Shown: positions 4,500 through 27,920, counted from the first letter of the stretch. The stretch: DNA of 32,000 nucleotides from Thermodesulfobacteriota bacterium (GCA_026625185.1 CP113000.1:2682651-2714650), one strand, 5' to 3'. Notes: generated by a model not told the origin, from the letters alone. A program made the numbers and translations.

Positions 4500-5657
4500 A
4501 TGTTTCATGTCGCCACCGACGAAGAGATAAAATCCGGGAAGGTTACGGATGTATATTTTGTGCGAACCCTGGAGATACTTAAAGCTCGGGGAATAAACAA
4601 ACGGGTTGCGGCTGAGGTGTGGACCAAAGATTTACCCCTTGAATGGAGATGGGCGGTCTTTGCGGGTATTGAAGAAGGGGTTGAACTTCTTGCGGGTAAA
4701 CCGGTTACGGTTAATGGGTTACCAGAAGGAACCATCTTTCAATCCTATGAACCGGTTTTAGAGATTGAATGCTATTATCAGGATTTTGCTATTTTTGAAA
4801 CCGCTTTGCTCGGTTTTATCTGCCAGGCAAGCGGCATTGCAACTGCCGCCGCCCGATGTCGAAAGGCGGCCGGTGATAAACCGATGACCAGTTTCGGCGC
4901 TCGGCGGATGCATCCGGCAATTGCGCCGATGGTTGAACGTAGCGCATTTATCGGTGGTTGTGATGGGGTAGCGGTTGTAAAAAGCGCAGAATTTATCGGT
5001 GAAGAACCGGTCGGCACAATGCCTCATGCCTTGATTTTAGTTATGGGGGATACGGTGGAAGCTACCAAGGCTTTTCATGATGTTATTTCCAAAAAAGTGC
5101 CCCGAGTTTCTCTCATTGACACCTTTCACGATGAAAAGTTTGCGGCGTTGGAGGCGGCGGACGCTTTGGGAAAGGACCTCTTTGCCGTTCGTTTAGACAC
5201 GCCATCATCTCGTCGGGGTAATTTTTTAAAGATTATTGAAGAGGTGCGATGGGAGCTTGATTTACATGGTTTTGATCAGGTTAAAATTTTTGTAAGCGGA
5301 AATATTAATGAAAAAGCCATTCAAGAACTCTATCACCAGGTAGATGCCTTTGGAGTGGGAACGAGCATTTCTAATGCTCCGGTAGTTGATTTTTCTCTCG
5401 ACATAGTTGAAGTTGAAGGGAAGCCTCTATCAAAAAGGGGAAAACCCTCGGGGAGGAAAAAGCTCATAAGATGTCCTCACTGTTTTCAAACGAAAGTTAT
5501 TTCGCGACAAAATGTTCCCCCTCCATGTGAATGCGGCGCAGCAATGGAATCCTTAAATTCTCCCCTTATTGCTGATGGGGAGGTGGTGGGGAATCGTTCT
5601 CGACCTCAAAAAATAAGAGAATATGTTTTAAATCAATTACCCCATTTTTCTTTATAG
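4500..5657 (+). CDS. Nicotinate phosphoribosyltransferase, archaeal/Thermoplasma-type with C-terminal zinc-knuckle
   Basis: 385 aa with type II PRTase barrel-like sequence (GARRMHP, GTMPHALI, VRLDTPSSRRG, VSGNI, FGVGT). The C-terminal Cys cluster is CPHC...CECG. The solved Thermoplasma-type NAPRT has such a zinc-knuckle domain, as I recall it. Confidence 0.75.
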   Translation: MFHVATDEEIKSGKVTDVYFVRTLEILKARGINKRVAAEVWTKDLPLEWRWAVFAGIEEGVELLAGKPVTVNGLPEGTIFQSYEPVLEIECYYQDFAIFETALLGFICQASGIATAAARCRKAAGDKPMTSFGARRMHPAIAPMVERSAFIGGCDGVAVVKSAEFIGEEPVGTMPHALILVMGDTVEATKAFHDVISKKVPRVSLIDTFHDEKFAALEAADALGKDLFAVRLDTPSSRRGNFLKIIEEVRWELDLHGFDQVKIFVSGNINEKAIQELYHQVDAFGVGTSISNAPVVDFSLDIVEVEGKPLSKRGKPSGRKKLIRCPHCFQTKVISRQNVPPPCECGAAMESLNSPLIADGEVVGNRSRPQKIREYVLNQLPHFSL

Positions 5658-5686
5658 TTTATTTTTTTTCTTAGGGAAGGATAAAG

Positions 5687-6331
5687 ATGAATTGGAGGGA
5701 GCAACGTGAACAGATGGTTAAGCATCAACTTGTTTTGCGGGGGATTAAAGACCAGCGAGTTTTGGAAGCCATGCGGAAAGTCCCTCGGCATTTTTTTGTA
5801 CCGGAAAAGTTGAGCGAAAGCGCTTACCATGATGGGCCTCTTTCCATCGGGGAAGGACAAACGATTTCTCAACCGTATATGGTTGCTCTCATGACCGAAT
5901 GTTTGGGTTTAAAAGGCGGTGAGAAAGTGTTGGAGATCGGGACCGGATCCGGTTATCAGACCGCAGTTTTGGCTGAACTGGCGGAGCACATTTATACTAT
6001 TGAGCGGATCCCGATTTTATTGAAAAAGGCTCAACAGGTCCTTACCCGCTTGGGATACACGACGATCACATTTAAAGGAGGGGATGGTACGTGCGGGTGG
6101 GAGGAGGAAAGTCCGTTTGATGGGATTATTGTGACTGCCGGAGCTCCGGATATTTCTCCGGTGTTGGTTGAACAGCTCGATGAGGGAGGCGTATTAGTTA
6201 TTCCGGTGGGAACTCGGTTCTCGCAGAGCCTTTTTAAAGTGACTAAAAAAGGAGACAGGATCGAAAAGGAAAATTATACTCTTTGTGTTTTTGTCCCGTT
6301 GATTGGAATGCATGGTTGGAAAGAAAATTAA
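5687..6331 (+). CDS. pcm: Protein-L-isoaspartate O-methyltransferase
   Basis: 214 aa. It has the SAM-binding motif VLEIGTGSGYQTAVLA and the TISQPYMVA motif characteristic of Pcm. Confidence 0.9.
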   Translation: MNWREQREQMVKHQLVLRGIKDQRVLEAMRKVPRHFFVPEKLSESAYHDGPLSIGEGQTISQPYMVALMTECLGLKGGEKVLEIGTGSGYQTAVLAELAEHIYTIERIPILLKKAQQVLTRLGYTTITFKGGDGTCGWEEESPFDGIIVTAGAPDISPVLVEQLDEGGVLVIPVGTRFSQSLFKVTKKGDRIEKENYTLCVFVPLIGMHGWKEN

Positions 6332-6358
6332 TAACTAACGTTAATTTTTATTTTGTCT

Positions 6359-7338
6359 ATGAAAATTGATGCCGCTATTCTTATTGGAGACCGAGGAAAA
6401 TTTTTTCCGGTTCAAGGAGGGAATAAAAATTTTTTGGACTTGCATGGATTGCCCCTGTTTTTTTATTCCATAAAAGCTTTGGAGGAATCTCCGTATATCA
6501 ATAGAATTTTCATTGTGGGAGATCAGGCGCGAATTAAAAATACCATAGCCGGTCACAGTCGCGCTTTGAAGACCCCCGACAAGATTATTGCTTTGGAGCA
6601 GAAAAGGAATCTATTTGAAAACGTTTTTGTCGCTTTTGAGGAAGCCCTATCCGTAGAAAGAAAAAATAATCGGAGTGCGGAGTGGACGGGTGAAGAAAAG
6701 GCCATGCTTTATATGCCGGGAGACACTCCTCTGATTGCCGCGCAGGAAATTGATGAGTTCATCGAACAATGTGACGTAAATTCTATTGATTATTTTTTGG
6801 GTATGAGCACTGAAGAAGGTCTGAAGCCATTTTATCCCACGAAGAAAGAGCGGGGAATTAAAATGGCTTATTTTTATGTTAAAGGTAAAAAGTATCGTCA
6901 AAATAACCTTCATCTGATTAAGCCGTTTAAAATTCAAAACCGTCACTGCATTCAGAGGATGTATGACTATCGGTATCAGAAACAGGTTATATATTTTCTG
7001 AAACTACTTTTGGCGTTTTATCGTGCGCATTTACAAAGACGAGGGATATATTATTTTCTTATCCTCCACTGGAACCTTTTCCTTGCACGCATCGGCTTGG
7101 AAAGCTTAACCCCTCCTTTTCGGAGAATGATAAGTTTGGAAGGCATTGAAGAGGTGATAAGAAATTTTCTTGGTTGTCGGTTTAAAATAGTGGAAACTAA
7201 GCTTCCTGGCGCGGCTCTGGATATTGATAATGAAAAAGATTATGAAACCATGAAAATTCAATTTCATTTTTGGAGAGATTATCAGTCTGATCTTATCGAT
7301 GCCTTTCTGAAATCACGACTACCGATAGAGTCTGCCCA

Positions 7339-7342
<4 letters not shown>
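6359..7342 (+). CDS. MobA-like NTP-transferase domain protein with an uncharacterised C-terminal half
   Basis: The N-terminus (AAILIGDRGKFFPV...LHGLPLFFYSIKAL...MPGDTPLI) resembles the NTP_transf_3/MobA-like fold. The start is uncertain (track uses TTG 6353, ATG is at 6359). Its stop overlaps the next start as ATGA. Confidence 0.55.
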
Positions 7343-10259
<2,917 letters not shown>

Positions 10260-13768: not shown

Positions 13769-14049
13769 CAATTTTGAAAAAGCCCATCACATTATAAAAT
13801 ATCAGTTTCGCTAATAAGGGCCCGGCAGGGGTGAGAAGCCCGGCAGATAATCTCTGATAAAAAAGTTGTCTTATATTGATCTGTATACGACGGTCGTTGT
13901 AACTACAGTTTTTTTTGTTGATTAACCGTAAATAATAAATAGGTGACATTAAATTCTAAAGTTAATTATAATTGTCTTATATCGCAATTCTTGCGTTGTT
14001 TAGAGTTTTAGTCGGGATACATATAATCCATGTTCGGCTTGAGAAAAAA

Positions 14050-14280
14050 ATGAAAATATTGATGGGCATCATAATCCTCCTATGTGGCATATATTCCGCT
14101 TATAGCGCCATCAAAAGTCTTACTGCTGGCAAAACAGAAGATCTCGAAGACGAGTTTCCACCTATCAAAAAGAGGAAGAATCCTATTAAATTCTATTTGT
14201 ATACATTGCCTTGCATGGCCGGAGGAATAGCAATGATAATATTTAGTATCATTATGCTGTGGGTTCAGATTGTTAACTAG
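14050..14280 (+). CDS. Hypothetical small two-helix membrane protein
   Basis: MKILMGIIILLCGIYSAYSAI...YTLPCMAGGIAMIIFSIIMLWVQIV has two hydrophobic stretches flanking a charged loop. There is no clear RBS and no family recognised. Confidence 0.3.
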   Translation: MKILMGIIILLCGIYSAYSAIKSLTAGKTEDLEDEFPPIKKRKNPIKFYLYTLPCMAGGIAMIIFSIIMLWVQIVN

Positions 14281-14412
14281 TAGCGAGGTTGCGACTCGAA
14301 AAATGATGGAAGCGAGATAAGCCGAACCGGCAAATGAAGCAGATGGCTCCGCCACGCGCTTATTTGCGACGTTGGGCGTTACAAAATATTCACAAGCAAA
14401 GGGGTAAATTAA

Positions 14413-14661
14413 ATGTCAGAGCGAACAAGAAAGCGGAAACGAGATGTGGAGAAGAATTATCCTGTAAAGCAATTTATAATAAAGCTGAGGCGACTTGCGG
14501 ACTGCATAGAAAATGGCAATCGCTTTCGGATACAAATTGCGGGAGAGCGGGTAGTTATTCCACCTTCTGCCAGCATCAATATTGAACATGAACGTAGCAA
14601 GTCAGAAGAAGAGATAGAATTTCAGATTAAGTGGCAACTTGACCGAAAATCTTCAAAATAA
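14413..14661 (+). CDS. amphi-Trp domain-like small protein
   Basis: 82 aa. It has a basic N-terminus, then ...RFRIQIAGERVVIPPSASINIEHERSKSEEEIEFQIKWQL. The alternating acidic/hydrophobic strand ending in KW resembles my recollection of the amphi-Trp domain family. Confidence 0.5.
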   Translation: MSERTRKRKRDVEKNYPVKQFIIKLRRLADCIENGNRFRIQIAGERVVIPPSASINIEHERSKSEEEIEFQIKWQLDRKSSK

Positions 14662-14861
14662 TTAGTGAGGTAGGGGGTGATGTTGGGGGTTGGGACAAGG
14701 TAAGCCATTAAAATTACGAATGATAATTTCCAAAATTCGAGAGAGTTTGTCTCTATATTGATTTTTTTAAGGGGAAATAACGTAATATACGGTGATTAAT
14801 GGCACGGGCTAAATGAAATTATGTTCCCGGGCATATACTTGAATTGTTCAACCTTTCTTTT

Positions 14862-14908
14862 CAGCCGATTCGTGCCAAAAACCGCACGAACCGGCTGAGC
14901 TTTTATTT
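14862..14908 (+). terminator. Terminator-like hairpin upstream of the decarboxylase locus
   Basis: CAGCCGATTCGTGC, loop CAAAAACC, GCACGAACCGGCTG (14862-14897, one bulge), followed by AGCTTTTATTT. It could terminate upstream transcription or be a leader structure. Confidence 0.45.
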
Positions 14909-14952
14909 CGGCTATTATAGATCAACAAACCATCGAAAGGAAAGATACAGAA

Positions 14953-16356
14953 ATGACCTATCGAAGATTGCTTGAGTCTATTCTCGCACATGCCTTGAGC
15001 TTTATTGAGAGCCTTGACGAAGGTCCCGTATCGGCAACCGCAAGTCTCGCTGACTTACGCCGACGTTTAGGCCACCCGCTTGCCGACAAGGGTATGGACG
15101 CAACTCATGTTATTGATGAATTAGTTGCTGATGTGAAAGGTGGGGTGTTAGGTACTTCAGGAGGACGGTTCTTCGGTTTTGTAGTCGGCGGCTCAGTGCC
15201 TGCCGCTCTCGCTGCTGATTGGCTTACGTCTACTTGGGACCAGCCCGCCGCTTTGTTCGCTTCCGGACCGGCAGTAGCCGTCATTGAAGAAATTTGTGGA
15301 CAATGAGTGAAAGAGCTGCTGAGTTTACCTCAGCAAGCAAGTTTTTCTCTGGTAACGGGTTGTTCAATGGCTCATGTGACCTGTCTTGCAGCTGCCCGAA
15401 ATGCTTTGTTGACCAAACATAGCTGGGATGTGGAGCGAAAGGGATTGAACGGCGCCCCTCCAATCCGCATCTTGAGTAATAACCAACGACACGGCTGGAT
15501 TGAGCGTACTGTCCGTTTATTGGGGATTGGTAACGACAACGTTTTTGATTCACCCGTAAATAAACAGGGGCATTTAGACTCAGAAGACCTACTGAGGGGA
15601 CTCCAAGAACATGCCGGCAAGCCAACCATCGTATTGTTACAGGCTGGCGAAATCAACACCGGGGTATTTGAGCCTTTTGAGGAGCTTATCCCAATCGCGC
15701 ACGAGCATGGTGCTTGGGTTCATATTGATGGGGCTTTTGGGCTATGGGCAGCGGCAAGCTCCAAATATAAACATTTGCTAAAGGGAGTAGATCAAGCCGA
15801 TTCGTGGATAGTTGATGGGCATAAATGGCTTAATGTGCCCTATGATTGCGGCTATGCCTTTGTTAAAGATTCAAGAGCTCCTCAAGCGGCCATGTCTCAC
15901 CGAGCGAGTTATTTAACCCACGATGCGGTTGCCCGTGACCAAATCGACTGGACTCCGGAATGGTCTCACCGTGGACGCGGCATCGCTACCTATGCCGCTA
16001 TCCGGCAACCAGGTAAACAGGGAGTGGCTGAACTAATCGAAAGCACTTGTCAATATGCGCATCGCCTGGTAACACGCATTAGTGCATTACCCTATGCTGA
16101 ATTGATTTGGGAACCACAAATAAACCAGGGGTTAGTACGTTTTCTCAGCGCGAAACTCAATTCGACGGATGCTGATCATGATCTGCGCACAGACAGCGTT
16201 ATTGCAAATGTTCTTGAATCCGGTGAAGCTTTTTTTTCTGGTACTACGTGGCAAGGTAAACGCTGTATGCGCGTTTCGGTGTGTAATTGGAAAACAAATG
16301 ATTTGGATGTTGAGGGAGCCATCAATGCCGTTCAACTTGCTTTATCAAAGCAGTAA
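14953..16356 (+). pseudogene. Group II PLP-dependent decarboxylase interrupted by one in-frame TGA (15304-15306)
   Basis: Track ORFs 14953..15306 and 15307..16356 are in the same frame and abut at a single TGA. The combined 467 codons match the family: GGRFFGFVVGGSVPAALAADWL, VTGCSMAHVTCLAAAR and the PLP lysine motif DGHKWLNVPYDCG. GC is visibly higher than in neighbouring genes. Confidence 0.8.
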
Positions 16357-16480
16357 AAATCATCGCATTCAATGTTTCGGGGCTTTGTTGCTCACTGATC
16401 AAGGCTAAACTAAGATGCGATTTTATTAGCATGACACTTTGCATCTCTTATGTTTCAACAGCCGGTTAGAGATCACGAAA

Positions 16481-16702
16481 CTATTCTAATGCTTTTACCT
16501 CAGACCGGAGGGTTTTGAGGCGGGTTTCCATAACCTTAAGTACAGCTTTAATATTTATTTCCAATGATCTTAAATCATTGCCTTTATTTAGTACTTGTTC
16601 TATTCTTTCTTTCCAGGTTTTTATCGTTTCGTCTTCTATTTTTAGTTTTTCCAGGCTTATTTTTTTTATTAAAAGGGCTTCTAATTTTTTATCGAATTCC
16701 AT
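16481..16702 (-). CDS. Hypothetical small coiled-coil protein
   Basis: The start is chosen at ATG 16702 (MEFDKKLEALL...), 8 nt after GGAGG; the track starts at 16741. The sequence is heptad-like and Lys/Glu/Leu-rich. No family recognised. Confidence 0.4.
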   Translation of the reverse strand: MEFDKKLEALLIKKISLEKLKIEDETIKTWKERIEQVLNKGNDLRSLEINIKAVLKVMETRLKTLRSEVKALE

Positions 16703-16763
16703 TATCATATCCTCCAAACGTTTTATTCCTGTGCTTTGCAAACGTCAAAAAACAATGTGTCAT

Positions 16764-16917
16764 GTCAGGCTGAACCCTGCTCTGGTCGTTCTGAACCTGG
16801 TGCTGAACCTGTTTCAGTAATGGCTCAGAATCTTACGGGCATCTTAAAAAATCAACATATTTTGAGACCCTGAAATCGTAACCCCTGAACTTGATTCAGG
16901 GCCTGGTTTAGGGTGAC
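16764..16917. repeat. Cluster of nested palindromic REP-like elements between pfp and the next gene
   Basis: Outer stem GTTCTGAACC (16788-97) / GGCTCAGAATC (16822-32) encloses CTGAA-CCTGT-TTCAG (16803-17). A second unit, GTAACCCCTGAACTTGATTCAGGGCC...GGGTGAC (16878-16917), has the hairpin CCCTGAA-CTTGA-TTCAGGG. Confidence 0.65.
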
Positions 16918-16941
16918 CAAAAAATAATTTTGCAAAGGTCT

Positions 16942-18180
16942 TTATTCATGGGTTATCCGATTTTCAGGGAGTTGGTATTCTAAAGAACGGGCAAGTTGGT
17001 AAAAATCAGAATTCTTATGAATATAGCGGATTTTTGCGAGTAAGGTTTTTGGATCAATTAACTCATGAAAAGGTACATATTTAATTTGCATTTGGTCCTC
17101 AACGCTTACCATTACTCCTGAAAAACCTTTTTGACAAATGGCTCGAAAGGCTCCGACCCCCAATTGGCTTCCCAGCATAACATCAAAAGCAGCCGGTTCC
17201 GCACACCGTGTCTCATAACCAATCTGCTTTGCTCGAACCTTTAATGCTTCTTTGGGAAAAATTTCCTTATAGCGTGTTTCCAGCTCGTTTGCTATAACCT
17301 TTCCAACTTCAGCGTCTCCGAGGACAACATTTCCGTGCCGGTCAACCCTTGTTGGTCTTAAATTTTCAGGAAGGAGTTCGGCTAAGCCTTCACTGACACA
17401 AATCACCCCGTATTTTTTCCCCTCGTTTGTTCTTGCTACCATTAGAGCCAGGAGGTCAGCCACAAGTCTATCAAGATTAAAATCACCCTTGATATTTTCC
17501 ACACTTATCATGCGGACCGCCTCGCCGGCAATGCCTGCCGCATAAGTAAGCCAGCCTGTTTTCCTGCCCATAATTTCTAAGATAAACCAGCTATTCGTGG
17601 ATGCAGCATCTGCTCCCAGATTTCTGATTTCATGAGCGGCAAAATTTGCGGCCGAGGTATATCCAAAAGTCCAATCAATCCCCAGGTAGTCGTTATCAAT
17701 GGTTTTCGGGATATGAACAATACGCATTGGTCTGATATCAGGAACGTGATATTGCATCAAATAAAGATAATTTACCGTTTTTAGGGTATCGTCGCCACCG
17801 ATAGTAATAAGACCGTCAATTTCAAAATGGTCCATCCATTTATAAACATTTAATAATCGATGATTTTTTTCGGGGTTGGTTAAATCGTGGATTGAAGAAA
17901 TCCCTTTTCCCGGGTTCGCTCGAGAAGTTTTAATAATAATCGACTTAATATTGCGAATGCCGCTTACATCCGGTAACGTCAATATTTTATAATGCTCGTT
18001 GGGAGCTAAAGTCTTTCCCTCCTCGTATTCCTGTAAAAATTCAAAGCCTTGTAAAAAACCATATACTTCGACCCCGGCATTCACCAGATTCATAACTGTT
18101 GCTGAAATAACTGCGTTTGCGGCTGGAGCTGGTCCACCAGAAAAAAGAATTCCAATATGTTTAATTTTTGGCACTTCCAT
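16942..18180 (-). CDS. pfp: Pyrophosphate-dependent 6-phosphofructokinase
   Basis: 412 aa in the PFK family (FSGGPAPAANAV, EIMGRKTGW). The motifs GGDDT and PKTIDND (Asp and Lys where ATP-PFKs have GGDGS and GTIDND) indicate PPi rather than ATP specificity. Confidence 0.85.
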   Translation of the reverse strand: MEVPKIKHIGILFSGGPAPAANAVISATVMNLVNAGVEVYGFLQGFEFLQEYEEGKTLAPNEHYKILTLPDVSGIRNIKSIIIKTSRANPGKGISSIHDLTNPEKNHRLLNVYKWMDHFEIDGLITIGGDDTLKTVNYLYLMQYHVPDIRPMRIVHIPKTIDNDYLGIDWTFGYTSAANFAAHEIRNLGADAASTNSWFILEIMGRKTGWLTYAAGIAGEAVRMISVENIKGDFNLDRLVADLLALMVARTNEGKKYGVICVSEGLAELLPENLRPTRVDRHGNVVLGDAEVGKVIANELETRYKEIFPKEALKVRAKQIGYETRCAEPAAFDVMLGSQLGVGAFRAICQKGFSGVMVSVEDQMQIKYVPFHELIDPKTLLAKIRYIHKNSDFYQLARSLEYQLPENRITHE

Positions 18181-20374: not shown

Positions 20375-21052
20375 GTGATAAAAATATCAAACCTAGTTCG
20401 ATCACTTATCGTAATGGGCTGCCTAGTGTTTTTCTCTGGCTGTGCGCATGTGATTTCGAAGGATCTCAGAAATCAGGTAGATTCCTCGCTAACCTTTGAA
20501 AAGGTATTCCAAAACCCAATGGCCTATAAGGGAAAAACTGTTGTCTGGGGTGGGGAGATCGTCGATACCCTCAACCAAAAAAATGGCACATCCGAAATCG
20601 AGGTCTTCCAAATACCTTTGGACTCGTGGACTGATGCACCAAAAGCATCAAATGTTTCAGAGGGCAGATTTTTAATTAAGGTCAATAAATATTTAGACCC
20701 GTACCTCTACCATGAAGGAATGAGAATTACAGTGGGGGGTGAAATTTCAGGGGAACAGATTAAACCTCTCGGAGAGATTGATTATCGGTATCCGGTTGTT
20801 TCGAGCAAACAAATTTATCTCTGGGACGATTACTATTATTATCCTTATCCTTATCCCTATTCTTATTATTACCCATGGGGGTATTATGATCCATGGTGGT
20901 GGGGATATCCTTATTGGTGGGGAGGGCTGGGCTATAGCGGTTACTATTGGGGACATCATGATGGGCACCATGGCGGTGGACATGGTGGTGGAGGAAGCCC
21001 TGGCGGTGGACATGGTGGTGGAGGAAGCCCTGGCGGTGGACATGGGAGATAG
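20375..21052 (+). CDS. Slp-family outer-membrane lipoprotein with an aromatic-rich and His/Gly-rich C-terminal extension
   Basis: GTG start lies 9 nt after AAGGAG, with a lipobox-like FFSGC. The core matches Slp (YKGKTVVWGGEIV...EIEVFQIPLD...GRFLIKV..YLDP..Y.G..ITVGGEI.G...KPLGEIDYRYPVV....IYLW). The 75-aa tail is DDYYYYPYPYPYSYYYPWGYYDPWWWGYPYWWGG...HGGGGSPGGGHGGGGSPGGGHGR. Confidence 0.75.
   Translation: MIKISNLVRSLIVMGCLVFFSGCAHVISKDLRNQVDSSLTFEKVFQNPMAYKGKTVVWGGEIVDTLNQKNGTSEIEVFQIPLDSWTDAPKASNVSEGRFLIKVNKYLDPYLYHEGMRITVGGEISGEQIKPLGEIDYRYPVVSSKQIYLWDDYYYYPYPYPYSYYYPWGYYDPWWWGYPYWWGGLGYSGYYWGHHDGHHGGGHGGGGSPGGGHGGGGSPGGGHGR
20981..21040 (+). repeat. Perfect 30-bp tandem duplication inside the lipoprotein tail
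   Basis: CATGGTGGTGGAGGAAGCCCTGGCGGTGGA occurs twice in tandem (20981-21010 and 21011-21040), flanked by partial copies. It encodes HGGGGSPGGG x2. Confidence 0.9.
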
Positions 21053-21162: not shown

Positions 21163-22534
21163 GGGGTACAATTAAAAAGTGTGTAAATAGATAAAAAGGC
21201 GGTGTATCCTTTTAAATTGAGGCCAATCAACTATAAAGAATGGAGACACCCCCATGAAAAAAAGTATCACAGAGACGGCAAGGCCGTCAAGCGGGACATA
21301 TTAGGTATTGGAGGAAATGGTTCGGCTGAAGGTGCAGGAATACATTCAGGAAATTCTGGAGAACGAAGTTGAGGTCTTTTTGGGTAGGAAGAAATCTGAA
21401 CGGATCAAGCCCATCGATGGCACACCGGGGTATTGGAACGGACACGGGAATCGGAAGAAGTTCACCGTGATGAACGGAACCATCACCATTCGTCGTACAC
21501 GTGTAAGGGGGAGCGAAGAACGATTCAAGAGCACGGTAATTCCTTTTTTCAAGCGCCGGTCGAAAGAAGTGGGGCAGTTGCTGCCGGAGCTATATTTACA
21601 CGGGTTGGCCAAAGGGGATTTTGAGATGGCACTGGGGGTTTATTGGGATAGGGAGTGTCGCTGTCGGCTTCGGCGATAGAGCGGCTGAAGGCGAAGTGGC
21701 ATTTTGAGTATGAGGAGTGGAAGTGTTAGGATCTCTCATCTTTTGAGGTGGTCTATCAGTGGGCAGATGGTATTTATGTGAAAGCCGGGCTGGAAAAAGA
21801 CAAGGCTGCGCTTTTTTTAGTGATTATCGGGGCTCTCAGCAACGGAAGGAAAGTTTTTCTTGCCTGTGAGAGCGGATATCGGGAGAGCAAGGAATCCTGG
21901 AACGGAGTTCTGAGGGGACTGATAAATCGTGGCCTGAGGCTCGGCAGGTTAACGATTGCCGATGGTCATCTGGGAATATGGTCTGCGCTCGGAGAGCTTC
22001 ATGCTGAAGGAAAAGAGGAGCGGCGCTGGAATCATAAGATCAGGAATGTCCTTGACTGTTTTCCCAAGAGGCTGCGTTCCGAGGCGGCAGAAAAGCTCAA
22101 ACCGGTTCCCTATGCGGAAACGCTCGTGGAGTGTGAGCGTCGTCGGGATGCGTTCATTGGGCATTACCGGAAAGACTTTCCCAAGGCGACAGAGAAACTT
22201 CTCTCGGATTGAGACAGAATGATTACATTCTACTCATTCCCGAAGTAACACTGGCCGCACCTGCGGACAACGAATGTGGTTGAGTCCTCCTTCAGCTCGG
22301 TAAGACTGAGGACGGATGCAGCGAAGCGGTTCAAGAAGGTTCAAAATGCCACAGCAATGATCTGGAAACTGCTGCGGGTCGCGGAGAAGAACTTCCGTAC
22401 GTTAAAAGGTCATTGGTTGTTGCCTGACGTTCACGCAGAAAAAACGTTTGTCGATGGCGTCGCGAAACGGGAGTCAAAAGGACCGGAAAGGATGGCCGCC
22501 TAAATGCTTTTTACACACTTATTTAAAAGACCCC
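21163..22534 (+). mobile_element. Degenerate IS256-family insertion sequence (~1.37 kb) with imperfect terminal inverted repeats
   Basis: The left end is GGGGTACAATTAAAAAGTGTGTAAATAG. The reverse complement of the right end is GGGGTCTTTTAAATAAGTGTGTAAAAAG. They match at 21 of 30 positions, including the terminal GGGGT and an 11-nt core AAGTGTGTAAA. They enclose the broken transposase. I see no target-site duplication. Confidence 0.7.
21308..22503 (+). pseudogene. IS256-family (mutator-type) transposase pseudogene
   Basis: There are three track ORFs (21308..21679, 21748..22212, 22276..22503), plus my reading of the gaps. Family-typical segments are LPELYLHGLAKGDFEMAL, SASAIERLKAKW..EYEEW, VYQWADGIYVKAG, LVIIGA, ADGHLGIW, RRWNHKIRNVL and TTNVVESSFSSVR. 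They are interrupted by at least one frameshift (~21640) and several in-frame stops. Confidence 0.85.
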
Positions 22535-22713: not shown

Positions 22714-22854
22714 TAGAAAAAAGTATTAAATAGAGCGAACTTCTGCAAATCGGAAGAAACCGAGTTTTTTCAGTTGGTTAAGATTTAACACTTTGAAAAA
22801 TCAGAACCGTTTTGTTATGATCCTTTAATATTGAAAATAGAAAGGAGTTTTCTC

Positions 22855-24975
22855 ATGCTTTTTTCCCAACGTGTCTTTTGCGGACAAATTACTCCGGATG
22901 ATGTCGGACGCAAGGTGCTTCTTGGCGGCTGGGTGGATGCTTTTCGAGATCACGGGGGCTTGCTGTTCATCCATTTGCGCGATCGCAGCGGTATCATGCA
23001 GATTGTTTTCAGCCCGGAAGTGGCCTCGGCAGACCTCTGCCAGAGGGCAGCATCCTTACACGCCGAATATTGCATTGCGGTTACGGGTGAAGTCAAAAAG
23101 CGGCTCGCGGGTACGGAAAACCCCAACATAGAAACAGGAAATATTGAACTAATGGCCACTGAACTGACTGTGCTTTCTGAATCGGACACTCTTCCCTTTA
23201 CCGTTTCCGAAAAGGCTATGGTACCGGCCACGGTAGACAGAAGCGCAGACAAGGTGGCTGAGGATTTGCGTCTCCAGTACCGGTATCTGGACATCCGTCG
23301 TCCTTCTATGCGGGACAATCTAATGGCCCGACACCGCATCTTTCAGTGTGTTCGAGAATTTCTCGACTCAAAGGGCTTTCTGGAAATAGAAACCCCGGTG
23401 TTGACGTCAAGCACTCCTGAGGGGGCCCGGGATTATCTGGTACCCAGTCGCCTCCACCCGCATAATTTTTACGCCCTGCCCCAGTCCCCGCAGCTCTTCA
23501 AACAACTGCTGATGATCGGAGGAATGGAACGCTACTTTCAAATAGCACGCTGCTTCCGCGATGAAGATCTGCGGCCCAACCGACAGCCGGAATTTACTCA
23601 GCTTGATATTGAAGCCTCTTTCATTGATGAAGAATTTATATATGAACTGGTTGAAGAACTTACCGTCAAGATGTTCGCTGTCGTCGGCATTAAGCTTTCC
23701 AGACCTTTTGCTCGCATCACCTATGCAGACGCGATGGATACAACCGGTTCCGATCGTCCCGATTTGCGCTTCGGCCTGCGCTTTGTCGATGTGACGGATG
23801 TGTTTTATCAAACCAATTATTCGATCTTCCGACAGATTCTGCAGCGTGGTGGCTACATCAAGGGCATTAACATTAAAGGCCAGTCCGAGATGCTCAGCAA
23901 GAATGTACTGCAAAATGAATACGCCAAGGAAATCGCCCCTTCGTTTGGCGCCAAGGGTATGACCTGGATGCGCTCCGAAGGGGGGAAACTCGAATCCAAT
24001 ATCGTCCAGTTTTTCAGCAACCAGGAACTGGAAGCGTTACGTAAAAAATTCGACGTTGCCGACGGAGACGTCCTTATTATGATCGCCGATCCTTCGTATG
24101 CCATTGTAACATCGGCTCTCGGCCAGTTGCGCCTGCATTTGGCGAATCGTCTCAGTCTTATTCCCGCAAATAGCTTTTTTCCGGTCTGGATCACGGAGTT
24201 CCCGCTGTTTGAGGCTACCGATGAAGGAGCCGTCACATCCAGCCACCATCCCTTTACTGCGCCGGATCGGATCGATTTTGATCCTAAAAATATTGAAGAA
24301 CTGCTGATGCTGCGTTCACGTGCCTACGACTTAGTCATGAACGGCGAAGAACTGGGTGGCGGTAGCATCCGTATCAACGATCGCAACCTACAACGCAAAA
24401 TATTTGCAGCGCTTGGATTGACCGAAGAGGAAACAAGGGAAAAATTTGGCTTTTTTCTGCGGGCTTTCGATTTCGGAGCGCCTCCGCACGGCGGTTTGGC
24501 GCTGGGCATGGACCGCACCGTGTCGATGATTCTCCAAACTCCGTCTATCCGCGAGGTAATCGCGTTTCCCAAAAACCGTAGCGCCGCCTGTCCTCTGACC
24601 GGCGCGCCTTCTGCGGTTAAACGTGAACAACTGGCCGAGCTGAGGCTGTTGAATCTGGGCGCTCAGGATTTGTTGCTCGGAACAGCCCAAAAAGGAAATA
24701 GGATAGATCATTTGTCCTGGGTATCGCGCATTGGTATTTCAGCTAAGGAGCGTCCAGTAATGGAACAAATTCTTACCCAGGCCGAGGAACTGGTTTTGCT
24801 TGCCACCCAAAAGGCAGGCAAAGAAGAGCCCATCCGCAACGTCGCTCCGGTCACAAATCACACCCGCCCGGGGACGGAAGAAAAACGCTCAGCCCTCTCG
24901 CAAACAGGTCAACTACTTAAGAGCGCGCCCGCGGTTAAAGGCAATTACTATAAGGTCGCCAGCATTCTGGAATAA
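22855..24975 (+). CDS. aspS: Aspartyl-tRNA synthetase (bacterial type with GAD insertion) fused in frame to a C-terminal GatC-like domain
   Basis: ATG 22855 lies 7 nt after AAAGGAG; the track starts at TTG 22831. The OB anticodon domain is GWVDAFRDHGGLLFIHLRDRSG. Class II motifs are FLEIETPVLT, FRDEDLRPNRQPEFTQLDIE and GGLALGMDRTVSMIL. The ORF continues about 100 codons past the normal AspRS end into a GatC-like sequence. Confidence 0.9.
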   Translation: MLFSQRVFCGQITPDDVGRKVLLGGWVDAFRDHGGLLFIHLRDRSGIMQIVFSPEVASADLCQRAASLHAEYCIAVTGEVKKRLAGTENPNIETGNIELMATELTVLSESDTLPFTVSEKAMVPATVDRSADKVAEDLRLQYRYLDIRRPSMRDNLMARHRIFQCVREFLDSKGFLEIETPVLTSSTPEGARDYLVPSRLHPHNFYALPQSPQLFKQLLMIGGMERYFQIARCFRDEDLRPNRQPEFTQLDIEASFIDEEFIYELVEELTVKMFAVVGIKLSRPFARITYADAMDTTGSDRPDLRFGLRFVDVTDVFYQTNYSIFRQILQRGGYIKGINIKGQSEMLSKNVLQNEYAKEIAPSFGAKGMTWMRSEGGKLESNIVQFFSNQELEALRKKFDVADGDVLIMIADPSYAIVTSALGQLRLHLANRLSLIPANSFFPVWITEFPLFEATDEGAVTSSHHPFTAPDRIDFDPKNIEELLMLRSRAYDLVMNGEELGGGSIRINDRNLQRKIFAALGLTEEETREKFGFFLRAFDFGAPPHGGLALGMDRTVSMILQTPSIREVIAFPKNRSAACPLTGAPSAVKREQLAELRLLNLGAQDLLLGTAQKGNRIDHLSWVSRIGISAKERPVMEQILTQAEELVLLATQKAGKEEPIRNVAPVTNHTRPGTEEKRSALSQTGQLLKSAPAVKGNYYKVASILE
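24697..24972 (+). other. gatC: GatC-like domain (last 92 codons of the aspS ORF)
   Basis: NRIDHLSWVSRIGISAKERPVMEQILTQAEEL...LKSAPAVKGNYYKVASILE aligns by eye, without gaps at either end, to Bacillus GatC as I recall it ([36 protein letters not shown]...MKNAPDHKDGYIRVPSILD). No separate gatC ORF precedes the gatA-like gene. Confidence 0.8.
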
Positions 24976-24989
24976 AGGGAGAAATCTTC

Positions 24990-26189
24990 ATGGATTCAAT
25001 CTTTTTCTACCGCAATCTTGAAATCGTCGCTCCCAAGGACGGTCATTTACAAGGGGTGAAGATTGCGATTCAACCCAACATCTCAGTGGCGGGCTGGCCG
25101 ACAGAGGCCGGTTCAAAAGCACTCCTCAATTTTAAAGCGATAGAAGACGCAACCATTGTGCAGCGACTTCGTCAAGCTGGAGCCTTCGTGTGCGGCTCAA
25201 CCCACATGAGTGAATTCGGTTTCGGTCTGGCCGGCAGCAAGGCAGGCGAGGCGCTTCGGCGACAGGCAGCCGATGTTGAACTGGTTTTAGACTTGATGGG
25301 CGAGAGCCGTCTGGCTGCTTTGCATGCGGCGGCTTGCGGTTTCAAACCCAGTTACGGTTTGGTGTCGCAATTTGGTCTCATCGGATTGATTCCGTCAATG
25401 GAGTGTTGCGGCCTGCTATCCAGAAATTTGAAAAATATTCGTGAAATTTTGCAAACCATTGCCGGTCCGGATGAACTGGATTTTTCAATTCCCGATGAAG
25501 AGATCCCGAATTTTTCCCCGCAGGAAATTGACCCGCAAAAAACAACCATCGGTTTTATTACGGAACCGCAAAACGAATTGTCTAACGATAAGGAAGCAAT
25601 ATTTCGTTATTCTGTTGATGAACTTAAAAAAGCCGGCTTTTCCTTACGCGAAATGTCGCTGCCTGACTTTTCGCTTTTCTCTCTCGTCCATAAAATCGTG
25701 GGCTCCGTGGAGGCCTCATCCTGCGCCGGACGCTATGATTCGGTGCGTTACGGTCCGCGCGCACTGGGAACCAAAAACTGGAACGATATGTATCTTCTCT
25801 CGCGCGGCGCAGCCTTTGGGTTGCTCTTGAAAAGCTATCTGTTTCAAGGCGCATTTTTCCAGTTTGAAAACTACGGCGCGTATGAAAATGCCTGCCGAAT
25901 TCGTGCGCGTCTGCTCACGGATATGCAGTTGCTCCTTTCGCAGGCCGACTTTCTGGTTTTTCCGATAGATAACGGCGCCACCTCAGGAGCATCTGAGTTG
26001 CTTGCGGACACGTATAATCAATTCGCCTCAACCGTTTTTGCCAATGTTACTGGTCAGCCTGCATTGTACCTGCCGCCGGTGTCGGGGGCGGCGCATTTAG
26101 GATTTCAACTGGCGGGGCCGAGGCTTAGTGATGCACGGTTGCTTGCGGTTGGTGAATATCTTCTGAATATGCGCAACGGAGGTAAATAG
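24990..26189 (+). CDS. GatA-like amidase-signature protein, shortened and with degenerate catalytic motifs (probable pseudo-glutaminase)
   Basis: 399 aa against about 485 for GatA. It is collinear with GatA from the IKDNI region to the C-terminus (GFKPSYGLVSQFGL, SVEASSCAGRYDSVRYG, NVTGQPALYLP). However, IKDNI reads IQPNI, GGSSGGS reads AGSKAGE and DTGGSIR reads DLMGESR. About 18 residues before the Gly/Ser loop and the N-terminal ~65 residues are missing. The RBS AGGGAG is present. Confidence 0.75.
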   Translation: MDSIFFYRNLEIVAPKDGHLQGVKIAIQPNISVAGWPTEAGSKALLNFKAIEDATIVQRLRQAGAFVCGSTHMSEFGFGLAGSKAGEALRRQAADVELVLDLMGESRLAALHAAACGFKPSYGLVSQFGLIGLIPSMECCGLLSRNLKNIREILQTIAGPDELDFSIPDEEIPNFSPQEIDPQKTTIGFITEPQNELSNDKEAIFRYSVDELKKAGFSLREMSLPDFSLFSLVHKIVGSVEASSCAGRYDSVRYGPRALGTKNWNDMYLLSRGAAFGLLLKSYLFQGAFFQFENYGAYENACRIRARLLTDMQLLLSQADFLVFPIDNGATSGASELLADTYNQFASTVFANVTGQPALYLPPVSGAAHLGFQLAGPRLSDARLLAVGEYLLNMRNGGK

Positions 26190-26191
26190 TT

Positions 26192-27628
26192 ATGGAATTT
26201 GAAGCGGTCATAGGATTAGAAATTCATGTCGAACTCAATTGCACCACTAAGATGTTTTGCGATTGTCCCAACCGTCCCGGCGACGACCCCAATGTCAATA
26301 CCTGTCCGACTTGCCTGTGGTTTCCGGGCGCTATGCCCCGATTTAGTCAGGAGGCACTTGAGAAGGCATCGATTTTATGTCTGGGGCTGAGCGCCGAACT
26401 TCAGCCCTTGAGCGCCTTCGACCAGAAGGTTTATTACTATCCGGATCTGCCGAAGGGCTTTCAATTATCGCAAGCCCATTTTCCCCTTGCGTGCGGCGGC
26501 GGAATCGACATTACAAACGAAGACGGTAAAACCAAAAGACTCCGCCTTCATCATATCCACATGGAAGAAGACGTCGCCAAACTTGTGCATGAAATGGAAG
26601 GACGCTTGCCGATCAGCCTGGTGGACTTCAACCGTGCCGGCTCGCCGCTGGTGGAAATAGTCACAGAGCCGGATTTCCGAACGCCCTATGAGGCTATGGA
26701 ATTTCTAAAGGCGCTACGCACGCAGGTCCGTTATGTAGGGTCCTCTGAGTGCAGCATGGAAAACGGGACGATGCGCGTCGACGCCAATATTTCCATACGC
26801 CCCAGTGGCACCAATCAGATGAACACCAAGGTTGAAGTAAAAAACATGAATTCCATCCGTCACGTTGGTGACGCCATCGCCCACGAAATCAGCCGCCAAA
26901 GCGCATGCATGCAAGCGGGTGAAACGATTATTCTGCATACACGCCTTTGGGACCCGGACAAAAAACTCACGCTCCCGATGCGCACCAAGTTTGAAGGCCC
27001 TTGTGTTCCCGATCCCAAAGTTCCGGTTATTAAATTATCACCCGACTGGATCGAAAAGATGCGTTCGCGTCTTCCGGAAATGCCCGCCGCAAGGGCAGAG
27101 CGCTTTGTCAAACAGCACGGACTGACTGATGAGGAAGCAAACTTTTTGAGTTCTGATCCGGAAGTCGCAAGGTTCTTTGAGGCGCTGATTGGCCAAGGAA
27201 TCGCGCCGCGCACAGCCATGCATTGGCTCATCACGCAGTTGATCCCGGCTGTTAAAGACCGGCAGCTGGACCTGAGCAGCTCACCTGTTACCCCAGCACG
27301 CTTCGCCAGTCTGCTTAGAATGCTTTCGCAGGACGAGATCAACGCCAATGCAGCGCGCGAGGTGCTTGTGTACCTGTTTGATAGTGACGAATCCCCGAAA
27401 AAAATCGTTGTTGCTCGTGGATTTCAGCAGGTTTCTGATCCCAAGGCTCTCGATGGGTTGATCGACAAGGTGCTAACAGCTCAACCGGAGACTGTAGCCA
27501 AGGTCCGGGGCGGCCAGGATAAAGCCATGGGCTTTCTAATCGGCCAGGTTATGAAAGCAGCAGGCGGTAAAGCCAATCCGAAAATAATACGGGAATTGCT
27601 TGTCAAAAAATTAAGCGAAATTTTATAG
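26192..27628 (+). CDS. gatB: Asp/Glu-tRNA amidotransferase subunit B
   Basis: 478 aa, starting 2 nt after the gatA-like stop. It has VIGLEIHVEL, FDQKVYYYPDLPKGFQLSQ, HIHMEEDVAKL, VDFNRAGSPLVEIVTEPD, MENGTMRVDANIS, VEVKNMNS and a C-terminal YqeY-like tail (GFLIGQVMKAAGGKANP). It is divergent but full length. Confidence 0.9.
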   Translation: MEFEAVIGLEIHVELNCTTKMFCDCPNRPGDDPNVNTCPTCLWFPGAMPRFSQEALEKASILCLGLSAELQPLSAFDQKVYYYPDLPKGFQLSQAHFPLACGGGIDITNEDGKTKRLRLHHIHMEEDVAKLVHEMEGRLPISLVDFNRAGSPLVEIVTEPDFRTPYEAMEFLKALRTQVRYVGSSECSMENGTMRVDANISIRPSGTNQMNTKVEVKNMNSIRHVGDAIAHEISRQSACMQAGETIILHTRLWDPDKKLTLPMRTKFEGPCVPDPKVPVIKLSPDWIEKMRSRLPEMPAARAERFVKQHGLTDEEANFLSSDPEVARFFEALIGQGIAPRTAMHWLITQLIPAVKDRQLDLSSSPVTPARFASLLRMLSQDEINANAAREVLVYLFDSDESPKKIVVARGFQQVSDPKALDGLIDKVLTAQPETVAKVRGGQDKAMGFLIGQVMKAAGGKANPKIIRELLVKKLSEIL

Positions 27629-27834: not shown

Positions 27835-27846
27835 GATTTTATTAAG

Positions 27847-27920
27847 TAGCGGGGTCTGGATTTGAACCAGAGACCTTTGGGTTATGAGCCCAACGAGCTT
27901 CCAGACTGCTCCACCCCGCA
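27847..27920 (-). tRNA. Initiator tRNA-Met (anticodon CAT)
   Basis: The hand-folded cloverleaf is TGCGGGG-TG-GAGC-AGTCTGGAA-GCTC-G-TTGGG-CTCATAA-CCCAA-AGGTC-TCTGG-TTCAAAT-CCAGA-CCCCGCT-A. Initiator hallmarks are three G:C pairs closing the anticodon stem, A11:U24 and an unpaired 1:72 position. The CCA is not encoded. Confidence 0.9.

Follow-up and report, generated by a model that had tools for sequence, protein, structure and literature searches.

A three-gene operon of fused aspS-gatC, degenerate gatA and gatB: possibly a covalently tethered asparagine transamidosome without glutaminase

Descriptions of tRNA-dependent amidotransferases present two activities as obligatorily coupled, a glutaminase (GatA or GatD) and a tRNA kinase/amidase (GatB or GatE), which are connected by an ammonia tunnel, and they present the transamidosome as an assembly held together non-covalently. 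In this study we analyze an operon of three genes in a stretch of 32,000 nucleotides from a Thermodesulfobacteriota bacterium (GCA_026625185.1, CP113000.1:2682651-2714650; this whole stretch is called the window below). The operon has the same four protein modules as the asparagine transamidosome of Pseudomonas aeruginosa (PDB 4WJ3), which consists of an aspartyl-tRNA synthetase of the bacterial, non-discriminating kind (ND-AspRS), GatCAB and tRNA(Asn). However, the P. aeruginosa complex is non-covalent and its GatA is an active glutaminase, whereas in the operon GatC lies within the AspRS polypeptide and the GatA-like protein has neither Lys79 nor Ser178 (Staphylococcus aureus GatA numbering, used throughout). 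Judging from the sequence, we lean, with some reserve, towards regarding the operon as a self-contained, covalently tethered asparagine transamidosome in which GatB would use free ammonia.

The comparison with known systems can be carried further. In 4WJ3 the AspRS and GatCAB chains are equal in number, which is compatible with the 1:1 fusion found here, and chains of this structure match the anticodon-binding domain of the window (4wj3_M is its best match in the PDB, with a His and a Gly shared), GatB and the GatA fold. With canonical GatCAB (S. aureus 2DF4, Aquifex 3H0L and Thermotoga maritima 3AL0) the operon has in common the gene order, the GatB motifs, the GatA fold and the GatC domain, but it has no Ser-cisSer-Lys triad, no GGSSGGS region, no free-standing GatC, and lacks about 45-60 N-terminal residues of GatA. 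A dedicated ND-AspRS with an amidotransferase for tRNA-dependent Asn is known from the two-AspRS systems of Thermus and Deinococcus and from the Thermus transamidosome (PDB 3KFU), and two of the loci examined here (L005 and L006) likewise have two aspS genes; in contrast to our fusion, the second AspRS of Thermus and Deinococcus is of archaeal type, unfused, and found with an active GatA (PMC4206432). As precedents for covalent joining there are the gatC-gatA fusion polypeptide of Mycobacterium smegmatis (PMC7541841), where GatC is joined to a different partner and which, as far as the title of that paper tells, is a forward-genetics isolate causing mistranslation rather than a design conserved in nature, and the fusion of GlnRS with YqeY in Deinococcus (PMC1865053), where an aminoacyl-tRNA synthetase is joined to an amidotransferase-derived domain, again with other partners.

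The fusion architecture itself is already represented by a curated model of NCBI, NCBIfam NF009460 (CDD PRK12820), under the name 'bifunctional aspartyl-tRNA synthetase/aspartyl/glutamyl-tRNA amidotransferase subunit C'; the model is confined to the fusion and does not mention a degenerate GatA, and no experimental paper was found behind it. In the full-text literature, whose coverage leaves out most subscription journals, no paper was found on an AspRS-GatC fusion or on a catalytically dead GatA, and these genes are not mentioned in the searchable supplements of Syntrophus proteome studies. The preliminary description of this DNA had taken the arrangement to be uncharacterized, which agrees with the literature found but not with the existence of this model for the fusion.

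The three open reading frames (ORFs) are co-directional, intact and in different reading frames, and a Shine-Dalgarno-like motif stands before every ATG (AAAGGAG, AGGGAG and GGAGG, respectively). Only 14 nt (24976-24989) and 2 nt (26190-26191) separate them, and thus the tight packing noted earlier is confirmed at the level of coordinates. Gene 1 starts at the ATG at 22855 behind AAAGGAG; if the TTG at 22831 were its start instead, the product would have 714 aa. Domain profile searches also agree with the earlier view that the place of gatC-gatA-gatB is taken by an AspRS-GatC, a short GatA-like protein and a GatB.

Gene 1 encodes a complete bacterial-type AspRS with a C-terminal GatC domain. 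The Pfam domains tRNA_anti-codon, tRNA-synt_2 and GAD are all above gathering, and the score reaches 690.8 bits on the aspS equivalog TIGR00459 (aspS_bact, cut-off 373.85) and 754.3 bits on NF001750 (cut-off 443). The tail, namely the last ~95 residues, stays below the gathering threshold of Pfam GatC (PF02686, 23 bits), scoring 13.4 bits as part of the whole protein and 17.4 bits (E 0.005) when searched alone. When orthologous tails are aligned, 14 of 14 match GatC as the sole consistent family (best E 1.1e-5), and a profile made from the tails finds S. aureus GatC (2df4_C, residues 5-95 of 100, E 3.7e-5) as well as P. aeruginosa GatC (4wj3_C, E 0.009). Hence the claim of a GatC-like C-terminus on a complete AspRS stands on homology over the full length of GatC. 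In addition, precomputed GatC matches exist on the fusion proteins of Syntrophus and P0143, and the C-terminus of the tail, ...NAP/SAPxVKGNYYKVASILE, resembles that of free-standing GatC; a homologue search with the tail only returned short contig-end fragments and no full fusions. On NF009460, residues 1-706 of gene 1 align end to end with positions 18-723 at 1315.6 bits, about 5% below the curated cut-off of 1379, and the fusion orthologues for which the full ORF was read have exactly 706 codons in 10 of 10 cases.

Regarding the tRNA specificity of the AspRS part, its anticodon domain holds the His of RDHGG and a loop Gly as in P. aeruginosa AspRS, where E. coli has Leu and Lys; we take these two to be the residues reported for the non-discriminating AspRS of P. 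aeruginosa. They occur in all fusions and likewise in the tail-less aspS of L005 and L006, for which reason the signature is a weak indicator of non-discrimination and was rejected as a marker to separate the fused AspRS from the tail-less one.

Gene 2 scores 168 bits on Pfam Amidase (gathering 27), and on the gatA equivalog TIGR00132 it gives 215.8 bits in two stretches, which does not reach the cut-off of 481.1. Its residues were compared with those of solved GatAs and in a 30-sequence alignment. In the product of gene 2 the catalytic Lys79 is replaced by Q28, the nucleophile Ser178 by E105 and Thr175 at the tunnel entrance by L102; a deletion of 24-25 residues (between Aquifex GatA 125 and 150) takes out the GGSSGGS region together with cis-Ser154, and the N-terminus is short by about 45-60 residues relative to GatA. 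Arg358 and Asp425, which are reportedly glutamine-binding residues of GatA, are lost in the window's protein, the former being Y283 and the latter falling in a 3-residue deletion, while the tunnel acid Asp211 is kept as E138. HMMER can align S83 with cis-Ser154 in the subclade of the window; since this position is D, G or N in wider members of the family, S83 is not a conserved catalytic residue. Across the family Lys79 is replaced by Q, R, E or P, Ser178 by Glu in 17 of 18 members, and the 25-residue deletion is present in 18 of 18; the motif D-x-x-G-E-x-R, with its Glu at the nucleophile position, is conserved in all members but one. The shortened amidase-signature protein with altered catalytic motifs, as it was first described for this single DNA, is therefore a family-wide matter, with neither the Lys nor the nucleophile Ser retained.

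The AlphaFold2 model of the GatA-like protein (pLDDT 68, pTM 0.77) was compared with the PDB by Foldseek, and the eight best matches are GatA chains with TM 0.65-0.71 (normalised to the query). Taking these results with the alignments, we read the protein as a GatA fold without the Ser-cisSer-Lys triad or the GGSSGGS loop, whose glutaminase activity is predicted to be lost. AtzE and AtzG descend from GatA and GatC, and AtzE is an active amidase that is not known to have a GatB or AspRS partner. This amidase-signature protein (PDB 6c6g, a 'vestigial' complex of s-triazine catabolism) is also among the structural matches of the model, and the operon would be the reverse of its case, with the amidase predicted inactive and the tRNA machinery kept.

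Degenerate GatA-like proteins were also met outside the 399-aa family, and these could represent either intermediates or losses that arose independently. In P0179 (439 aa) the 25-residue deletion is shared, yet the Lys and the nucleophile Ser are both still there; in P0181 (478 aa) the Lys is still there, but Glu occupies the nucleophile position and the GGSSGGS loop is scrambled; in P0183 (444 aa) neither the Lys nor the nucleophile Ser is left.

Gene 3 passes both GatB equivalogs, with 559.5 bits on NF004012 (cut-off 338) and 475.8 bits on TIGR00133 (cut-off 314.8), and aligns over its full length to five solved GatBs with tunnel, kinase and metal residues kept. E10, H12, K79, Y81, K88, Q91, the EED and VEIVTEPD motifs and the four-Cys Zn site are retained in every orthologue, so that GatB is complete, as had been supposed. 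A Y90F replacement was considered as a family marker and rejected, as Y or F varies among orthologues. By its GatB and its GatC domain the operon belongs with the transamidosomes and GatCAB, by the missing GatA triad it departs from them, and we thus class it, on sequence grounds, as a non-canonical variant of this kind.

The short GatA-like protein is a member of a large and uniform family. When clustered at 90% identity, it comprises more than 120 clusters, which share 65-99% identity with the query; almost all of them measure 395-406 aa, the exceptions being a few fragments and longer calls. When representatives at 50% identity were searched exhaustively, the family runs from 491 down to ~250 bits, each matching in one stretch with about 390-412 aa, whereas canonical GatAs reach at most 155 bits, mostly in two stretches, which leaves a sharp step below the family; the same lesions are found in members down to 38-44% identity. 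The ratio dN/dS, estimated by the Nei-Gojobori method from pairs without saturation, amounts to 0.08-0.09 in the fusion, 0.08-0.11 in GatB and 0.18-0.26 in the GatA-like gene. Within the fusion it is 0.07-0.09 for the AspRS core, 0.11-0.35 for the linker (codons 599-617) and ~0.11 for GatC (codons 618-706). The GatA-like gene appears constrained but 2-3 times more relaxed than its partners, which fits a retained scaffold without catalysis. Fixed length, conserved synteny, shared lesions and these ratios together support the earlier argument for selection rather than decay.

The arrangement is not an assembly artefact, because an identical GatA-like protein is read on seven contigs, which come from assemblies of NCBI, JGI and Logan and include a 3.30-Mb contig of a metagenome-assembled genome (MAG) labelled Thermodesulfobacteriota bacterium (WAC07102-WAC07105). 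The preliminary description had considered that indels or stops might restore separate canonical genes; the identity of the protein across these different assemblies speaks against it.

Nor is the arrangement a one-off, as it might have appeared from a single sequence. The three genes stand together in 12 of 12 distinct loci examined, with different flanking genes in each. Eight of these loci (L001-L008) come from GTDB species genomes and were found by contig scan with the GatA-like protein (exact 8-residue patterns); they belong to Smithella MAGs, a Desulfobacterales MAG and MAGs labelled Acidobacteria, Dehalococcoidales and Pirellulaceae. Further loci are on Syntrophales and 'Dehalococcoidia' contigs, and among cultured species the operon is present on the closed 3.25-Mb chromosome of Syntrophus buswellii (WP_367360460, WP_367360459 and WP_408999271) and in Desulfosalsimonas propionicica. 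For the Desulfobacterales MAG the identities of the three operon proteins are 62%, 40% and 54%, respectively, and in L008 the synteny is still kept at 40% identity.

Several features give the operon the look of a mobile cassette. In the window the operon has GC 0.514 and GC3 0.52-0.57, against GC 0.42 and GC3 0.36-0.44 in the flanks, and the IS256-family remnant beside it, at GC 0.51, resembles the operon and not the host in this respect. An excess of 6-13 GC points over the flanks is seen for the operon in the window, L005, L006 and L008, and in the higher-GC loci L002, L007 and L013 the operon agrees with its flanks. The adjacent insertion sequence (IS) was said to be full of stops, and the IS256-family gene is indeed broken into three ORF fragments; the remnant has no tblastn match in L001-L008. 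Fusion proteins are 79-88% identical between MAGs labelled as different phyla, where the labels are unverified. Because of the GC anomaly, the dead IS alongside, the varied flanks and the protein identity across labels, these data suggest a compact cassette which has apparently spread horizontally among Syntrophus, Smithella, Desulfobacterales and MAGs labelled as other phyla. On a 291-kb Dehalococcoidia-labelled contig (L015), two phage-type integrase genes and an HTH_17 gene were observed just downstream of the operon (13788-17277), consistent with a position at the edge of a mobile region.

As to the mechanism, what is shown of a physical link between AspRS and amidotransferase is the covalent AspRS-GatC join; from the sequence we infer complex formation, charging of tRNA(Asn), ammonia as the donor and a physiological role as follows. 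The AspRS moiety, with anticodon-domain residues as in non-discriminating enzymes, would charge tRNA(Asn) with aspartate, and presumably tRNA(Asp) too. The fused GatC domain would wrap the GatA-like protein as free GatC wraps GatA, and the GatA-like protein, predicted to be incapable of glutamine hydrolysis, would hold GatB and so serve as a structural adaptor between GatC and GatB. GatB would then phosphorylate Asp-tRNA(Asn) and amidate it with ammonia from solution, not from a glutaminase in the complex. GatCAB accepts ammonium as amide donor in vitro. Free ammonia may be the simplest candidate donor, because there is no glutaminase in the predicted complex and none recurs in the neighbourhoods. 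GatC is required for the folding of GatA and for the GatA-GatB complex (review PMC2330236), and therefore a fused GatC could hold GatB only via a GatA-shaped adaptor, which would explain why a dead GatA is kept under selection.

A wider claim is that the operon is the only AspRS and amidotransferase of Syntrophus, Smithella and their relatives, working on free ammonia without glutaminase, covalently channelled, and carried as a portable cassette across phyla; we put this forward tentatively, as quite possible. None of the examined loci has a canonical gatA or gatC within 10 kb. In the census of Alperstein et al. (PMC4206432, Table S1), Syntrophus aciditrophicus SB has asnA 0, asnB 1, gatCAB 1, aspS 1, asnS 0 and glnS 1, and no delta-proteobacterium has two aspS (Tables S1 and S2). 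If S. aciditrophicus resembles S. buswellii, by analogy the operon would be its only AspRS and amidotransferase and would be needed for Asn only, because GlnRS is present, and under such a condition the amidotransferase could become wedded to AspRS.

Several points weigh against this account. S. aciditrophicus was not recognisable among the best 120 fusion matches, and for this reason the census argument rests on the congener S. buswellii. Other parts of the operon-bearing genomes may carry a canonical gatA or even a complete gatCAB. In the Smithella-like loci L005 (5002-6774) and L006 (~5827-7563) the fusion is not the only AspRS, because a tail-less aspS stands beside hisS directly upstream of the fusion operon; its product (590 aa, 874 bits on NF001750) is 45% identical to the AspRS part of the fusion, and its GC is host-like. 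The foreign GC of the operon in low-GC hosts suggests that it could be an add-on to a complete translation apparatus. As for the chemistry, the replacement of T175 by Leu at the tunnel entrance makes a usable ammonia path uncertain, the AlphaFold2 model is of moderate confidence (pLDDT 68) with several conserved segments of low confidence, and an ammonia-dependent function is plausible yet unproven.

The first alternative takes up these points and regards the operon as an accessory, paralogous module: the host would keep its canonical GatCAB, and often its AspRS, and the cassette would serve tRNA-dependent Asn synthesis under special conditions, e.g. glutamine limitation or high ammonia, or else a canonical GatA would be borrowed in trans. 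The aspS of host-like GC next to hisS in L005 and L006, the GC excess over the flanks in four loci, the IS remnants and phage integrases adjoining the operon and the high identity of fusion proteins across phylum labels are all in its favour, and there are precedents for a second AspRS/GatCAB set in Clostridium acetobutylicum and other organisms (PMC4206432). Nevertheless, we consider this explanation rather unlikely, in view of the neighbourhoods free of canonical gatA and gatC over 10 kb, the single aspS and single gatCAB of S. aciditrophicus with no second aspS in any delta-proteobacterium of the census, and the fused GatC with its co-evolved dead GatA, which leave little room for a canonical GatA.

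It is improbable, in our opinion, that the module has been repurposed, so that the GatB kinase chemistry would act on Asp-tRNA with another nucleophile or towards another product, or that it would sequester mischarged Asp-tRNA(Asn) or regulate it. Such a change would suit the loss of the glutaminase, which takes away the normal nitrogen source, and the Glu in place of the nucleophile Ser within the conserved D-x-x-G-E-x-R gives a hint of a site that is kept in altered form; other chemistry has also recruited GatA/GatC pairs, as in AtzE/AtzG (title of PDB 6c6g). But GatB scores like any normal equivalog and has its catalytic and tRNA-binding domains complete, the neighbourhoods share no recurrent biosynthetic genes and consist of unrelated housekeeping genes, and the very low dN/dS of AspRS and GatB is typical for core translation proteins.

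Even less probable is that the GatA-like protein still releases nitrogen, by a non-canonical mechanism or from another amide donor. The Glu conserved at the nucleophile position, the tunnel acid kept as E138 and the S83 alignable with cis-Ser in the subclade of the window might be quoted for it; however, the catalytic Lys is variably Q, R, E or P, S83 gives way to D, G or N in the wider family, the deletion takes away the GGSSGGS oxyanion loop, the two reported glutamine binders (R358 and D425) are lost in the window's protein, and dN/dS is 2-3 times that of the partners. Finally, a decaying gatCAB remnant with a functionless GatA-like gene, to which the shortening and the missing catalytic motifs might point, has a negligible probability, and a pseudogene or an assembly error is rejected with it, given more than 120 clusters at a fixed ~399 aa, dN/dS ~0.2, synteny conserved to 40% identity (L008) and identical sequence in independent assemblies.

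If the tethered, ammonia-using transamidosome is the true one, the glutaminase would be dispensable in vivo and substrate channelling could be hard-wired; if, moreover, the operon is the sole system, it would be a natural, obligately ammonia-dependent transamidosome, which spares the ATP of glutamine synthesis in energy-starved, ammonia-rich anaerobic habitats. The system is directly testable because it is present in the cultured S. buswellii and D. propionicica. At the same time its annotation is conflicting: the 399-aa protein is called 'amidotransferase subunit A' by IMG, 'Glutamyl-tRNA(Gln) amidotransferase subunit A' in one MAG submission and 'amidase family protein' by PGAP, and PGAP names the fusion plainly 'aspartate--tRNA ligase', because its score is just under the NF009460 cut-off. 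As a consequence, metabolic reconstructions of syntrophs will over-call or miss the pathway.

The features of the operon and its immediate surroundings are collected in Table 1. Neither a riboswitch nor a T-box was found upstream of the operon, and at the Rfam gathering threshold the whole window matches tRNA only.

Table 1. Positions in the window of the operon, its domains and the adjoining features
Feature	Position	Strand	Basis or remark
Degraded IS256-family (Transposase_mut) transposase	21308..22503	+	3 ORF fragments of 123, 154 and 75 aa; PF00872 on two
Promoter-like site TTGAAA-17-TATGAT with TG extension	22793..22821	+	34 nt upstream of the gene 1 ATG; consensus match only
aspS::gatC fusion gene (gene 1), 706 aa	22855..24975	+	Pfam, NCBIfam
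AspRS anticodon-binding OB domain, residues 21-107	22915..23175	+	Pfam tRNA_anti-codon
Class II AspRS catalytic core, residues 136-575	23260..24579	+	Pfam/NCBIfam; QSPQ, FRDEDLR..RQPEF and GGLALGMDR present
Bacterial GAD insertion, residues 325-421	23827..24117	+	Pfam GAD, inside the AspRS core
Short AspRS-GatC linker, ~residues 599-612	24649..24690	+	Poorly conserved in alignment
GatC domain, ~residues 613-706	24691..24972	+	Tail alignment/profile
GatA-like pseudo-amidase (gene 2), 399 aa	24990..26189	+	GatA fold; catalytic residues lost
Canonical gatB (gene 3), 478 aa, GatB_N and YqeY tail domains	26192..27628	+	Pfam, NCBIfam
tRNA-Met (CAU)	27846..27920	-	Immediately downstream of the operon; right edge of the GC-rich block

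Some other parts of the window deserve a short record. A Slp-family lipoprotein gene at 20375-21052 (+) encodes a C-terminal low-complexity tail rich in Tyr, Trp, Pro, Gly and His (…YYYYPYPYPYSYYYPWGYYDPWWWGYPYWW…GGGHGGGGSPGGGHGGGGSPGGGHGR), which is partly encoded by a perfect 30-bp tandem repeat of 2.5 copies (20971-21045). The segment 18001-19000, between a PFK gene (16942-18180, -) and a 132-aa ORF, is AT-rich (GC 0.32) and contains no ORF of at least 60 aa and no Rfam match. At 4500-5657 (+) there is a quinolinate-phosphoribosyltransferase-like protein of 385 aa, which exceeds its two matched Pfam domains, and at 6353-8256 (+), after a PCMT gene, two poorly annotated ORFs have faint matches to cytidylyltransferase and to Zn-dependent phospholipase C-like proteins; these ORFs of 4500-8256 are set among the housekeeping genes htrA, eno, ligA and rmlABD.

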